Source of the DNA: a virus
IMG/VR virus record: IMGVR_UViG_3300045988_119396
DNA: 64,000 nt
Direction: 5' to 3' (one strand)
The translations under genes were made by a program, and so were the position numbers. The notes under the pieces were generated by a model, which was not told where the DNA came from, made no database searches, and saw nothing but the letters and a program-made list of their open reading frames with translations. Of the stretch, positions 30,312-55,987 are shown piece by piece. Positions within the stretch are counted from its first letter, which is position 1. Every line of letters starts with the position of its first letter.

Positions 30312-31481
30312 GTGAGTAAGATGTTAAAAGGTATTAAATTACGTATATACCCAAATAAGAGACAACGTGAACAGTTGGATATTATGTTTGGTAATAGTCG
30401 TTTTATTTGGAATAATATGTTAGCTACGATGAACGAGCGTTACAAGAATAACAAAGATTTACCTATGTTAACCGAGTATAAATTACATGTTCTACTAAAA
30501 CCTTTGAAAGTTGAATATCCATTCTTGAAAGAGAGTGATAGCACTGCTTTACAAGTAGATTGTCAAAATCTGTATCGAGCGTGGAAGAACTTCTTTAAAT
30601 CTGGTTTTGGTAAGCCTAGATTCAAGTCTAGGAAATTCTACAAGCAATCTTATACAGGTAAGTCGGCACCTAATGTTCATGTAGTAGCTAAAAGATATAT
30701 GAAACTACCTAAGCTAGGCTATATCAAAACTAGCAAAACATTTCAACTCACCGATTGCAAGATTAAACGTTATACGTTAAGTCATGGCACGACTGGTCGT
30801 TATTATTTATCTTTACAGGTAGAATGTGAAAATCAAGCATTGTTACCTAAGACAAATAAATCAGTTGGGTTAGATTTAGGTGTAGCAGATTTAGCTATTT
30901 CTTCTGATGGAATTAAATATGATACATTCCATGTGGGAGATTTAGAACATAAAGCTAACTTGTGGCAACGTAAGTTTTCTAAGCGTAGACATCAAGCTAA
31001 GGTTTGTATCGAAAGTGATAAATACTCAAAAGTATTAGTGCCTAGAGATTTTGATGATTTTAAAAATCTACAAAAGGCTCGAAAGCGCAAAGCGAGATTG
31101 CAAGCTAAGATAGCTAACAAACGTAAAGATTACTTGCATAAATTAACCACTACGTTAGTAAAGCAATACGATACTATCGTTATTGAAGATTTAAAGGCTA
31201 AGAATATGATGAAAAATCATAAACTAGCAAAAGCAATAGCTAACGGTTCATGGTATTTATTCCGTTCTATGTTGGAATATAAGTGTAATTGGTATGGGAA
31301 GCAACTAATAGTAGTTAGTCCTAAATACACTTCACAAGTCTGTTCTAACTGTGGTGTAAATACAGGCAAGAAATCGTTAGATGTTCGTGAGTGGACTTGT
31401 GATAATTGTGGTACACATCACGATAGAGATATTAACGCTGCTAGAAATATCTTGGCTAAAGGATTGAAAGAAGTAGCTTAA
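30312..31481 (+). CDS. tnpB: TnpB (OMEGA RuvC-like RNA-guided nuclease, IS200/IS605 OrfB)
   Basis: RuvC-I GLDLGV, RuvC-II IVIEDL, zinc finger CSNCG...CDNCG, Ruv[14 protein letters not shown]. Confidence 0.85.
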
Positions 31482-31969: not shown

Positions 31970-32042
31970 GTCATGTGGTGTATATGTGTAGCACACTCGT
32001 CCTTAACACGAGAGAAGTAGGGTTCAACTCTCTACCATGACA
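31970..32042 (+). ncRNA. tRNA-like (73 nt) with anticodon loop CCTTAAC (anticodon UUA, would read UAA) and degenerate D-arm; possible suppressor-tRNA relic
   Basis: Acceptor 6/7 bp; anticodon stem CTCGT/ACGAG at canonical positions 27-31 and 39-43; T-arm TAGGG-TTCAACT-CTCTA. No GG in the D-loop; C at position 33. Confidence 0.25.
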
Positions 32043-32363: not shown

Positions 32364-32425
32364 TACGGTGTAGCTCAAATGGTAGAGCAAGGAGGCTGAT
32401 ATGGGTTCGAGTCCCATCACCGTAA
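32364..32425 (+). ncRNA. tRNA-like RNA lacking an anticodon arm
   Basis: Perfect 7-bp acceptor TACGGTG/CACCGTA; canonical D-arm GCTCaaatggtaGAGC; T-arm ATGGG-TTCGAGT-CCCAT. Only 12 nt (AAGGAGGCTGAT) where the anticodon arm should be. Confidence 0.35.
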
Positions 32426-33088
32426 TTTTGTTCTTTGACAATCGTATACTTTACTATTCAAACAGCAATTCAAGCATAACCAGTTGTATAAGGGGTCTAA
32501 TCAACCCTTGCTGGATATGTACCTGTAATTCGTAGTAGATGTAGTCTGAGTGATAGCTTAGACAAGTCGTGAGATGGTTAGTAATATCTATTGAACCTAG
32601 TAAAAGCTAGGACGTAGGGTACGTATGTGGATACATGTGACGTTAGTGTTTCACTGGCTGTTGGCATTAGATAATAGACGCTTACAGTGTGAGAATAACC
32701 CATTGACAGCTTAGTGTGGCAACTAAGTGTTGCGTTGGGAATGCCAAGAATAATGTTTGCCTTGACGCTTAGGAAACTAAGCTATAACAACAGAGGTGAG
32801 AACAAGTAGGGTAATGGCAATATATACAGTTAACTTGTGCATTACAAACGACAGATAAGAGATAATTTTGTAAATATTCTGAATGATAACCTGAAAGTTG
32901 GGATTTACCATAATCGCCACATTTTTAAAAAGCAAAAGGAAGTGATGAGGTAGCTCTTTGTCACTCAGACCTTTTGAGATGTTCACATAATAAACGGTAG
33001 CATGTTGAAGCAGAGTGAAAGCTCATGTTTGAATTGCTATTTGAGTAGTGAAGCATATGATATATCAAAGAACATATAACTATATTTA

Positions 33089-44408: not shown

Positions 44409-44621
44409 GTTTTGTTAAAAAATTCTCGGCACGTATTTAACGGTAGTGCCTATGTCCCATCACGCTCTCAAAAACGTGTGAACTCTCAAATCATGGTTAT
44501 GGGACGGTGTGTTTTTAAGTGACGTAACTTTTAAAACCATGCCTTGTTTTATTAGTTTTCGCAAAGAACAGCTAACTTTGCAACGACCTATCAATCTTTT
44601 ACAATTAATAGACCCAGTGCG

Positions 44622-53449: not shown

Positions 53450-53515
53450 GAGTTACCCCTCCTTTTCATCAATATAATTTGCCATACTCCTTTCTTGCAT
53501 AGTATTATTAATACG

Positions 53516-53860
53516 CTATCCCATAATATATTGTTTTTCAGTAATTACTTGTTCTTGCCAATTATTACTATGGTTAATTAAGCTGATATTTTTAGTTGAT
53601 GTATAACTTTTATCACTATTGCTTACATACTCACCAAAAATATCTCTTAGCCTTGTACCCGCCCCTTTAGCAGTAAATCCACTAATATAGCCTTTCTTGT
53701 TGCTATTCTTAATTTTGGCATAATCATTTAGCCAAAATCCTCTAGCGTATTTAGTATTTTTAGAATTTCTTTTACTTGTTATATTAGGTGTCTTACGACC
53801 CTTACGTGCCGTAGCCTCATGTAAGGAACGCTTTTTCTTTCTAAATTGTTTAAACATCAT
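53516..53860 (-). CDS. basic protein; possible detached C-terminal fragment of the IscB-like gene
   Basis: Lys/Arg-rich. Lies 37 nt downstream of the iscB-like stop, in a different frame. Confidence 0.3.
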   Translation of the reverse strand: MMFKQFRKKKRSLHEATARKGRKTPNITSKRNSKNTKYARGFWLNDYAKIKNSNKKGYISGFTAKGAGTRLRDIFGEYVSNSDKSYTSTKNISLINHSNNWQEQVITEKQYIMG

Positions 53861-53897
53861 AATGCTAGTTGGTTTTGCTTTGATTTTTCTAATCCCA

Positions 53898-54809
53898 CTA
53901 ATTATTATAGTGGGACTTAGTTAATTCTAAGTCAGCTCGCTGTAATGTTGTCCATGCTCCATACTGAAATTTAGCTTGAGGGAAAGCTAAAAATAGTCTT
54001 CTTCTTAGAATGTTCATGAAAGTCGCACCTTTATAAGACTTGTTGACTTTCTTTTTATCCTTACACCATTTAGCTAAAATTCCAGTTTGGTGATTTTTAG
54101 TTGTGTGGCAATTAGAACATACTGTAATTAGATTATTTACAGTGTTAGTTCCACCTAAAGAACGGTAGATAATATGGTGGATTTTGAGTTTACCACCTTT
54201 TTTCTTACATACTTGACAAGTATAGTTATCTCTAGCTAAAACAAATTGTTTAACAGTTTGATAGCCGTATAAATCACCTTGCTGATAACCCTCACCATTT
54301 ATTTCTGGATTTTTCATTTTTTGAATATCAAACTTACCTACTTCGATATGTAAATCAGCTTTAGGTAAGACTGATAATAAACGCTTTATCCAGTTGATAT
54401 TATGGTTAACTTTACTTAATACCGAAGGCGGTAGCCAGTTATCTTTTTTCTTAGCTATACGATTTAAAAATTTAGCTTTACGATAACGTGTTTTACGGTT
54501 ACGTCTACTTCTACGATATATTCTTCTAGTATCTATTAGCTTTTTGACATCTTGTCTTAACTCTACTTCGCCTTGAAATAAGACTTTATCTTGGCTTGTA
54601 ACAGCTAGTCCAATATGTCTTTGACCGCTATCAATACCAATACTTATATCCTGTTTATAACCAGTTGAACCATATAAGAGCTGAATGGTAAAAGGTTCTT
54701 TTTTAAGTACCTTAGCTTTACCATCTCTTAACAAAATTCTAGCTTTTCTAGGCTTACATGGCATTAACGCTTTACCATGTTTGTTAATCACAAAAACTCG
54801 GTTTTGCAT
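53898..54809 (-). CDS. iscB: IscB-like OMEGA nuclease (PLMP, RuvC-I, Arg-rich bridge helix, RuvC-II, HNH); terminates inside the expected RuvC-III motif
   Basis: ALMPCKPRKARILL; GIDSGQRHIGLAV; RRSRRNRKTRYRKAKFLNR; IHIEVGKFD; HNH CQVCKKKGGKLKIHHI...CSNCH; ends ...LELTKSHYNN*. Start taken at the second Met (54809), after GGAG. Confidence 0.65.
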   Translation of the reverse strand: MQNRVFVINKHGKALMPCKPRKARILLRDGKAKVLKKEPFTIQLLYGSTGYKQDISIGIDSGQRHIGLAVTSQDKVLFQGEVELRQDVKKLIDTRRIYRRSRRNRKTRYRKAKFLNRIAKKKDNWLPPSVLSKVNHNINWIKRLLSVLPKADLHIEVGKFDIQKMKNPEINGEGYQQGDLYGYQTVKQFVLARDNYTCQVCKKKGGKLKIHHIIYRSLGGTNTVNNLITVCSNCHTTKNHQTGILAKWCKDKKKVNKSYKGATFMNILRRRLFLAFPQAKFQYGAWTTLQRADLELTKSHYNN

Positions 54810-55045
54810 AATTTGTACTCCTTTCATTTTTTATAAGGTACTAACGACCTTATCACGTATTTATCAGAGTTAATAAATACATGTAGTTACCCTTCGACAA
54901 TGTTATTTCAGCTTATAAACAAGGTTGACTAGCACATTAACCTTATGCTTGTTTACAGAGCCTCCATAGTGCTAGAAACTAGGGTATCATTTCTAGGTAT
55001 GTTCACTGAAATAACGTAGTTCTCTAAGAACTTAGTCTAGACAAC
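54810..55045 (-). ncRNA. candidate IscB omega-RNA / structured 5' leader
   Basis: About 235-nt ORF-free region directly upstream of iscB. Minus-strand hairpins CTAGAAAtgataccctagTTTCTAG, CTAAGttCTTAG, ATAAGGTcgttagtACCTTAT. Confidence 0.3.
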
Positions 55046-55075
55046 AAAATTATTAAGTTACCTACTTTAGTAGGT
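55036..55075 (-). terminator. rho-independent terminator (minus strand) ACCTACtaaaGTAGGT plus T-rich tail
   Basis: Follows the stop of the 55078..55575 gene. Confidence 0.45.
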
Positions 55076-55077
55076 GG

Positions 55078-55575
55078 TTACTGTTGACCCTTCTTAGTCA
55101 TTTCTTCCAAAGCGTCTTGCCACTTATATTCCACATCTTCCTTGATAATAGGGTTAGTTTTCTTCGTCAGACCAACAACCTTAACCCTAAAGTCATGAAC
55201 ACGAGGAACTACAATCTCAACAGGAATACCATATTGCTTAGCAAACATCTTAAATCTTAATTGTGCTGCTGGGTCAATATTGTATGTTGAGTTAAACCCT
55301 GTCTTGACGTCATAAACATGCAGCAAGTTACCATCTTCATCTCTTATCACAACATCTGGTGTGTAATTAGCACTTCTCAAACGCAGACCATTGTGTAATT
55401 CCACCATAGGTTGTATTGTAAAAGACTCGTGTACGGTAGCATTTAAATCTCTACCATAAATAAATCGCTCATAAAACTTAGCTTCTTTTTCAGAGTCAAA
55501 TTTCAGACCATTAAATTCAACTTTCTTACCAAAGTAAGTTGTTCTACCTCTATTAATTCTAGTTTTGCACCTCAC
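55078..55575 (-). CDS. DUF1064-like phage protein (putative nuclease)
   Basis: KFDSEKEAKFYERF...PDVVIRDEDGNLLHVYDVKT pattern, from recalled family features. Confidence 0.4.
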   Translation of the reverse strand: MRCKTRINRGRTTYFGKKVEFNGLKFDSEKEAKFYERFIYGRDLNATVHESFTIQPMVELHNGLRLRSANYTPDVVIRDEDGNLLHVYDVKTGFNSTYNIDPAAQLRFKMFAKQYGIPVEIVVPRVHDFRVKVVGLTKKTNPIIKEDVEYKWQDALEEMTKKGQQ

Positions 55576-55670: not shown

Positions 55671-55712
55671 AAAAAAACCTCGCAGCAGAAAGCTACGAGG
55701 TCAAAAAGGTTT
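55671..55712. terminator. bidirectional terminator A7-CCTCG...CGAGG-TCAAAAAGGTTT
   Basis: Hairpin flanked by an A-run and a T-run. Confidence 0.55.
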
Positions 55713-55732
55713 ACAGTGTGTTATAATGTATT

Positions 55733-55987
55733 GTGGCGAAAGTTATAAAGACGGTGGCTGACTTATTAGAAAGTGTGGTGTTGCCTATGCAATGCGAAAC
55801 TAACGAAAGGAAAGCCATTTGTGTCTGTCTATCAAGCCTTGATGTTGATGTTAACATTCGGTGTGTTTCTGTTAGCATTACTGACATACATCAGCAAAAA
55901 GTAAGCAACTTTGTTGTGACGATAGTAGATACAGTAAAACCGTCCGATTGTAACTTTGGCGAGTTCGTGGACGGTTGCTGTATGTGA
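55733..55987 (+). CDS. small Cys-rich ORF inside a promoter-to-terminator unit; may be non-coding
   Basis: TGtTATAAT at 55719-27 lies only 5 nt before the GTG start. Terminator CATGCttcgGCATG plus TTTTT at 56031-56060. Confidence 0.25.
   Translation: MAKVIKTVADLLESVVLPMQCETNERKAICVCLSSLDVDVNIRCVSVSITDIHQQKVSNFVVTIVDTVKPSDCNFGEFVDGCCM

Follow-up and report, generated by a model that had tools for sequence, protein, structure and literature searches.

The 64,000-nucleotide stretch of viral DNA analysed here (IMG/VR record IMGVR_UViG_3300045988_119396; 'the window' in what follows) contains, on its minus strand, an IscB-like gene that ends within its last RuvC motif and is followed, in another reading frame, by a second and smaller ORF. 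An earlier note on this DNA had proposed that the pair might represent a naturally truncated or two-piece IscB, or an HNH-only nickase. The locus thus raises the question of whether it encodes a nuclease of unusual form, or instead holds the remains of an ordinary one. We favor the latter, with a probability of roughly 0.9: the locus corresponds to a known IS200/IS605-type (ISC) OMEGA module, the IscB gene of which has been knocked out by a recent 11-bp deletion. Within a large phage-like plasmid of Ligilactobacillus salivarius, the module lies between a DUF1064 gene and the gene that follows it. Its features, in the order in which they would be transcribed, are as follows.

55089..55104 (-): guide-equivalent flank GAAATGACTAAGAAGG, 16 nt, directly 5' of the scaffold, within the 3'-terminal part of DUF1064
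54883..55088 (-): omega-RNA scaffold (Rfam HEARO, RF02033), model positions 1-211/211
54828..54882 (-): probable omega-RNA 3' extension, two hairpins between the HEARO match and the ribosome-binding site; presumed extent
53898..54809 (-): iscB 5' fragment (ORF1), 303 aa, with PLMP, RuvC-I, bridge helix, RuvC-II, HNH, and RuvC-III up to its His
53893..53915 (no strand assigned): inverted repeat TCCCACTA-(7 nt)-TAGTGGGA, spanning the premature stop codon
53903..53904 (-): deletion junction, at which 11 bp, GACGCTGTAGC, are absent relative to all intact alleles (DNA alignment; seven intact alleles)
53516..53902 (-): iscB 3' remnant, +1 frame (ISGIRK...YIMG*), rest of RuvC-III and C-terminal domain
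53516-53860 (-): 114-aa ATG ORF (ORF2), beginning 37 nt past the ORF1 stop, +1 frame
53481..53515 (-): short 3' tail of the element, ending ...GGAGTATGGC; the omega-RNA-distal transposon end is truncated

An IscB gene fragment and its omega-RNA

ORF1 begins at an ATG at position 54809, with AGGAG located 8 nt 5' of it, and encodes 303 aa from an MQNR start (a further-upstream ATG, which lacks Shine-Dalgarno spacing, would extend the protein to 309 aa). The protein contains the motifs ALMPCKP, GIDSG, RRSRRNRKTRYRKAKF and LHIEVGKFD, as well as an HNH domain inserted between RuvC-II and RuvC-III. Pfam searches matched the full profile of PF14239 (RRXRR; 1.2e-64, positions 1-174/174), which corresponds to PLMP, RuvC-I and the arginine-rich bridge helix, and placed PF01844 (HNH; 2.6e-12) at residues 204-246. 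The NCBIfam equivalog NF040563 (guided_IscB) scored 371.8 bits against a cut-off of 175 bits, covering profile positions 1-308/314. The IscB N-terminal architecture that the earlier note had read from the letters was therefore confirmed. The best matches in the PDB were OgeuIscB, TbaIscB and HfmIscB (E about 1e-37, aligned in two stretches). Cas9 models scored far below their cut-offs (TIGR01865, 24 bits versus 100; Cas9d, 41 bits versus 375), no CRISPR family was found in an Rfam scan of the window, and the size of the protein (∼430 aa with its remnant) also speaks against Cas9 membership.

The C-terminus of ORF1 reads ...LELTKSHYNN and is followed by a premature TAG. In HMMER alignments, KSHYNN lies opposite KTHMNDA of TbaIscB and KDHYLDA of IscB 11hr, which places the stop inside the H-x-x-D motif of RuvC-III, where the earlier note had suspected it to be; protein alignment gave the same position. 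No intact RuvC-III was found elsewhere in the protein, and no single polypeptide of the window copy unites a complete RuvC-III (H-x-x-D) with a contiguous C-terminal domain. Since a homologous remnant is present, the locus is, judging from its sequence, best regarded as a disrupted member of the IscB family rather than as a non-member.

The suggestion that a structured leader upstream of ORF1 encodes an IscB omega-RNA was upheld by a cmscan search of Rfam, which returned a full-length HEARO match (115.9 bits, E = 1.2e-24, against a gathering score of 83) on the same strand as iscB, ending 73 nt 5' of the start codon. The span originally given for the leader, 54810-55077, is indeed ORF-free and structured (MFE z-score of −2.6), but the RNA begins slightly outside it, at 55088 in the last DUF1064 codons: the first 11 nt of the scaffold, GTCAACAGTAA, provide the DUF1064 ORF with its final two codons and its stop. 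HEARO RNA was later shown to be the omega-RNA of IscB, and RF02033 is without downstream structural elements of that RNA (Meers et al., bioRxiv 10.1101/2023.03.14.532601). The two hairpins 3' of the HEARO match, which are stable in both MFE and centroid folds, agree with the latter remark.

Comparison of seven copies of the element revealed common sequence from GTCAACAG onward and unrelated sequence 5' of it. This boundary, which is exact across the copies, coincides with HEARO position 1 (window position 55088), and it is the divergence point expected of a guide/scaffold junction. IscB guides are 16 nt long, and with this length assumed for the window the guide would be GAAATGACTAAGAAGG, a 16-mer that occurs once in the window. 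The derivation of IscB guides from the 5' flank, in the same arrangement, has been described (bioRxiv 10.1101/2023.03.14.532601).

A sigma-70-like promoter and a preceding terminator are located upstream of DUF1064, making it plausible that the omega-RNA is co-transcribed with that gene; the layout also matches the reported orientation bias of IscB elements relative to the upstream gene (Meers et al., bioRxiv 10.1101/2023.03.14.532601). An intact copy would make the omega-RNA together with, or shortly after, the transcript of the upstream gene; the 16 nt at the 5' end of the RNA would act as its guide, and matching DNA would be cut by IscB through its HNH and RuvC sites. The omega-RNA gene of the window has been left untouched.

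The locus resembles the OgeuIscB-omegaRNA system (PDB 7UTN, 7XHT) and GstIscB of ISGst in its domain order, in its upstream HEARO-type omega-RNA with a 5' flank-derived guide (bioRxiv 10.1101/2023.03.14.532601), in having no adjacent tnpA, and in sharing the orientation of the upstream gene. Those systems are nevertheless distant, and the window copy differs from them in being disrupted, in residing in a phage-like plasmid, and in having lost one transposon end.

An 11-bp deletion within RuvC-III

A query in which ORF1 was joined to the +1 frame retrieved thousands of IscBs, the best of which were 434 aa in length and 93% identical over 100% of the query; ORF1 itself is 93-95% identical to two intact IscB proteins (P0001 and P0002). 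The intact homologues all read H-[YFA]-N-D-A-V-[AT]-I-S at RuvC-III, and 434-aa orthologues at the same locus read KSHYNDAVAISG. In the window, HYN-N-stop stands in this place, and the sequence continues from ISG in the +1 frame. DNA alignment located the missing GACGCTGTAGC, corresponding to the codons D-A-V-A minus one base, between TATAAT and AATTAG. This gap is the sole indel in the coding region, and there are no other stops in either part. The deletion thus eliminates the RuvC-III Asp (the missing catalytic residue pointed out in the earlier note) and three further residues, and shifts the frame; by breaking HYN-DAVA-ISG, it leaves a 303-aa N-terminal fragment. An AAT microhomology was considered at the deletion and rejected: both AATs are retained, so that the junction shows no microhomology.

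The +1 frame is open back to position 53902 and beyond, that is, already before the ORF1 stop, and reads ...ISGIRKIKAKPTSIMMFKQ...; the remnant is colinear with residues 307-434 of the intact IscBs and has suffered no further frameshift. The 114-aa ORF lies where it had originally been reported, 37 nt past the stop and in the +1 frame, and the suggestion that it represents a detached C-terminal domain is supported by its alignment with the C-terminal part of intact IscBs. When searched alone, ORF2 gave no family match, and no Shine-Dalgarno-like sequence precedes its ATG at 53860. The C-terminal remnant is probably untranslated, or at best poorly translated. Read-through of the TAG by a window tRNA with anticodon UUA was also considered and rejected: frame 0 reads WD*KNQSKTN*HYDV* and never reaches the C-terminal domain.

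The perfect inverted repeat at the stop is real and one base pair longer than first described, but it is unexceptional, as perfect 8-bp hairpins with loops of 3-10 nt number 27 in the window (versus 8-20 in shuffled sequence). Its arms are the conserved codons S-H-Y and I-S-G, and two intact alleles carry the same arms separated by a loop of 18 nt rather than 7 nt, because the deletion brought these conserved codons close together in the window. The hairpin is a by-product of the coding sequence and needs no function of its own.

The alternative that survives best, although we consider it improbable, is that advanced in the earlier note: a functional split IscB, or a 303-aa fragment that, with RuvC dead, would nick DNA on its own through HNH under the guidance of the omega-RNA. 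Split Cas9 is able to reassemble, and a ribosome could in principle reinitiate 37 nt past a stop codon. The intact PLMP, RuvC-I/II, bridge helix and HNH regions, the intact omega-RNA, a C-terminal remnant free of further lesions, and the presence of the allele in several samples are all in keeping with such a reading. The arrangement is not conserved, however: all sequenced relatives with this insertion junction carry either an intact 434-aa gene, differing at the identical locus by the single 11-bp gap, or the identical and undiverged deletion. A two-piece enzyme would moreover have to do without D-A-V-A and without 14 residues, ISGIRKIKAKPTSI, that are encoded by neither ORF1 nor ORF2, and its second piece would have to be made from an ORF that has no ribosome-binding site. 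In the IscB structures PDB 7UTN and 7XHT, the missing and stranded C-terminal part supplies the remainder of the RuvC fold together with the TAM-interacting domain, and without it target recognition should fail. The proposal of a natural truncated, two-piece or HNH-only nickase is therefore not sustained, and the 303-aa and 114-aa fragments are probably inactive.

Frameshifts in single assemblies are often errors, and an assembly or sequencing artefact that masks an intact gene would account for the disruption; we regard this as very unlikely. At least six contigs, from runs ERR528296, SRR10479806 and ERR15813988, carry the exact 303-aa protein and the 114-aa ORF. One contig carrying the deletion is 100% identical to the window over 5.6 kb, another differs by 3 SNPs, and another by 22 SNPs and one indel, all outside the element. 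The recurrence of the same deletion in the assemblies of three independent sequencing runs, including that of the strain with 22 SNPs, indicates that it is real, and an 11-bp loss in non-repetitive sequence is atypical of read errors. The deletion is a genuine allele, carried by slightly different genomes. The deletion alleles show zero differences from one another within the element, which indicates that the deletion is recent and also makes a test for post-deletion selection on allele divergence impossible. Its occurrence in at least two slightly different genomes argues against strong counter-selection.

A programmed +1 ribosomal frameshift at AAU-UAG, which would join the two ORFs into a 430-aa protein, has almost nothing to recommend it beyond a +1 frame that continues through the stop codon and a hairpin at the site: the hairpin sits astride the site and not 3' of it, there is no +1 slippery motif of a known kind, intact relatives need no frameshift, and the fused product would carry Asn in place of the catalytic Asp and lack A-V-A. 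A plain RRXRR-HNH homing endonuclease without an RNA partner, as the 'HNH endonuclease' of older annotations might imply, can be dismissed with similar assurance, given the HEARO match directly upstream, a score above the NCBIfam IscB equivalog cut-off, and a variable guide flank that starts exactly at the scaffold boundary.

A stranded element at a polymorphic plasmid locus

We compared a 14-kb query around the locus with known replicons and observed 89.8% identity over 82% of its length to pMP1046B of L. salivarius JCM1046. This circular plasmid of 129 kb has been reported as a candidate chromid (PMC4165912), and IMG/VR includes it among its viral genomes. Among the genes of the window are phage-type ones for replication and recombination (PolIII-alpha, a DnaB-like helicase, exonucleases and an integrase), and its PolIII-alpha is 37% identical to those of large Bacillus and Clostridioides phages. 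A blastn search of the locus against GenBank phages revealed no close relative, only a 71-bp match to a Clostridium phage HNH gene. From these comparisons, the window appears to be part of a large phage-like (mega)plasmid of L. salivarius.

Five contigs encode the protein P0002, in a gene order that matches that of the window: PolIII-alpha, ligase, DUF1064, IscB, and then the same small genes. These intact sister loci (L001-L005) share with the window the exact insertion junctions on either side, the whole 19-nt guide flank, a truncated distal end, a reduced omega-RNA hairpin, and 92.4% DNA identity; they differ in containing one uninterrupted 434-aa ORF that reads HYNDAVAISG. Copies of the element that are independent of these are found on L. 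salivarius plasmids and on one contig with bacterial housekeeping genes. Three of the plasmid copies are annotated in RefSeq as 'RNA-guided endonuclease IscB' (pLMP1046 NZ_CP007649, WP_148305473.1; NZ_CP062073, WP_255320050.1; NZ_CP123973, WP_284650703.1). They are 88.6-91.8% identical to the iscB region of the window at the DNA level, with identity that spans the omega-RNA region and begins at the same 5' boundary, and they encode proteins of 433-434 aa. Unlike the window copy, they are intact and have kept both a second omega-RNA hairpin and a distal end of ∼85 nt.

The whole element in the window extends from 53481 to 55088, and its homology to other copies ceases at 53481. The copies on L. 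salivarius plasmids and on the chromosome-like contig continue for ∼85 nt, with a hairpin CCCCTACTAAAGTAGGGG and a terminal ATTGAA or ATTAAA, after which their flanks diverge; this distal stretch holds a second CTACTAAAGTAG hairpin. No second CCTACTAAAGTAGG hairpin is present in the window, and the distal ∼85 nt are missing from the window and from its intact sisters alike. Of the two ends with subterminal hairpins that characterize IS200/IS605-type elements, only that on the omega-RNA side is therefore represented. The omega-RNA of the phage-plasmid copies is also without the second 5' hairpin, GGCTTGTAGTGGTAAACTACAAGCC, that the bacterial copies carry. The sequence AAATTATATTGATG that follows the element was considered as a possible remnant of the transposon end and rejected, since an IscB-free relative (L006) has the same sequence at the end of its 54-aa ORF.

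Having lost its distal transposon end, the module is not mobilisable by a TnpA transposase, and no Y1 transposase (TnpA) was recorded within 10 kb in the syntenic loci. The IscB module of this replicon family is thus stranded, yet intact in sister lineages. The distal end had already been lost when the 11-bp deletion took place.

Four relatives in IMG/VR carry the DUF1064 gene, at 96-98% protein identity, and no IscB. In two of these (L007 and L008) the DUF1064 gene leads straight into the ribosome-binding site of the next gene; in the other two (L006, and L009, which is pMP1046B itself) a 54-aa ORF takes the place of IscB. The IscB-free alleles read ...ACTAAGAAAGGTTGATTAG (L006) and ...ACTAAGAGGGTTGATTAG (L009), and match the guide sequence except at one or two of its three final bases. 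In two of them the guide-like sequence is followed by TTGA, resembling the ATTGAA flank of the bacterial copies; the putative TAM is drawn from just four flanks. These alleles suggest that the element might have inserted next to a TTGA-like motif in an L006-like ancestor, and that a later deletion might have removed its distal transposon end together with most of the 54-aa ORF. This scenario, which is not proven, would fit all three allelic states. A search of viral contigs by 16-mer for the 3' end of DUF1064 lacked specificity and gave nothing but chance matches.

The repaired window gene (with the 11 bp treated as a gap) gave dN/dS values of 0.08 relative to L001 and 0.08-0.10 relative to other copies. 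Along the gene, dS relative to L001 changes from 0.53 (N-terminal part) to 0.09 (C-terminal part), a mosaic that indicates recombination with other copies, and the low dN/dS can therefore not be assigned to selection inside the phage-plasmid.

The locus adds little new biology to the family, as IscB and its HEARO/omega-RNA are well characterised and near-identical intact L. salivarius genes are already annotated as iscB; a search of the literature for IscB pseudogenes or naturally RuvC-inactivated IscBs found nothing relevant. In an annotation, the two ORFs should appear as a single iscB pseudogene, alongside an entry for the omega-RNA that notes how it overlaps the stop codon of DUF1064.

The only mildly novel angle concerns the stranded IscB module that, without one transposon end and with a fixed guide matching the 3' end of DUF1064, occupies a polymorphic locus of these phage-plasmids and might be a homing system guided by RNA. 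Its situation is similar to that of free-standing phage HNH homing endonuclease genes, in that a nuclease gene lies between conserved phage genes at a polymorphic site that also has endonuclease-free alleles; it differs in that targeting would be by RNA, and in that the window copy is broken. We tentatively suggest, while considering it rather unlikely, that an IscB without transposon ends may act as an RNA-guided, free-standing nuclease for homing or competitor exclusion between co-resident phage-plasmids, in which case the window would represent a fresh loss-of-function allele and the IscB-free loci would be escape variants. Close replicons carry three natural allelic states (intact IscB, 11-bp-deleted IscB, and IscB-free), and the locus thereby offers convenient material on whether an IscB that lacks a transposon end behaves as an RNA-guided homing element among phage-plasmids.

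The site between DUF1064 and its neighbor

The interval between the DUF1064 gene and the next gene was found in three states, being occupied by the IscB element, by a 54-aa ORF (MRDLKDLLDDF...NNYIDEKEG) or by nothing. The site matching window positions 53450-55090 lies at 4486-4660 of L006, an IscB-free relative, and was also located in L009 (pMP1046B, an IscB-free plasmid of L. salivarius JCM1046). The window retains a remnant of the 54-aa ORF, consisting of its last 8 codons only, positioned 3' of the IscB element.

The DUF1064 ORF, whose PHROG match is a Holliday junction resolvase (5e-35), runs into the element on its other side:

55078-55088, minus strand: end of the DUF1064 ORF (...KKGQQ*), overlapping the omega-RNA scaffold

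The first 11 nt of the scaffold (55078-55088) provide the stop codon and last two codons of this ORF. In IscB-free alleles the DUF1064 C-terminus reads ...KKG*, ...KRVD* or ...KKKEG*.

Variation among copies of the IscB element

Comparison of the omega-RNA (window 55030-55060, minus strand) with bacterial copies of the element (L013-L017) identified a hairpin, GGCTTGTAGTGGTAAACTACAAGCC, that is present in the bacterial copies but absent from the phage-plasmid copies, intact and broken alike, where it is replaced by a mere AACTTAATAATTTT.

The window does not hold the sole decayed copy of its IscB family, as two further loci illustrate:

L017/L018, 2501-3667: IscB copy of 388 aa with a C-terminal frameshift, on a 171-kb contig
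L019, 3805-3840: IscB copy with a truncated distal end, cut off at a different point from that in the window

The frameshifted 388-aa copy has nagA/nagB-type genes as neighbors.

TnpB and structured RNAs elsewhere in the window

Additional features were identified as follows:

30312-31481, plus strand: TnpB, 389 aa (Pfam HTH_OrfB_IS605, OrfB_IS605 and Cas12f1-like TNB)
31970-32042, plus strand: tRNA, anticodon TTA (ARAGORN)
32364-32425: tRNA (Rfam; missed by ARAGORN)
32456-33043, plus strand: full-length ROOL RNA (RF03087; Rfam, 245.5 bits, gathering score 99)
44452-44505, minus strand: salivarius-1 RNA motif (RF03030; 50.6 bits, barely exceeding the gathering score of 50)
55712-55891, plus strand: rli28, a Listeria sRNA family (Rfam, 66.8 bits, gathering score 45)

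The TnpB gene (PHROG match: transposase, 6e-124) therefore represents a second OMEGA-type nuclease on the replicon, and, unlike the IscB of the window, this nuclease appears intact. It lies a little upstream of the ROOL RNA, which has tRNA genes on either side; the tRNA with anticodon TTA is a potential ochre suppressor. The related plasmid pMP1046B has been annotated with tRNA-Gln and tRNA-Ser (PMC4165912). The rli28 match falls between the ligase and DUF1064 genes, both of which are encoded on the other strand. The salivarius-1 motif is consistent with L. salivarius as the host.
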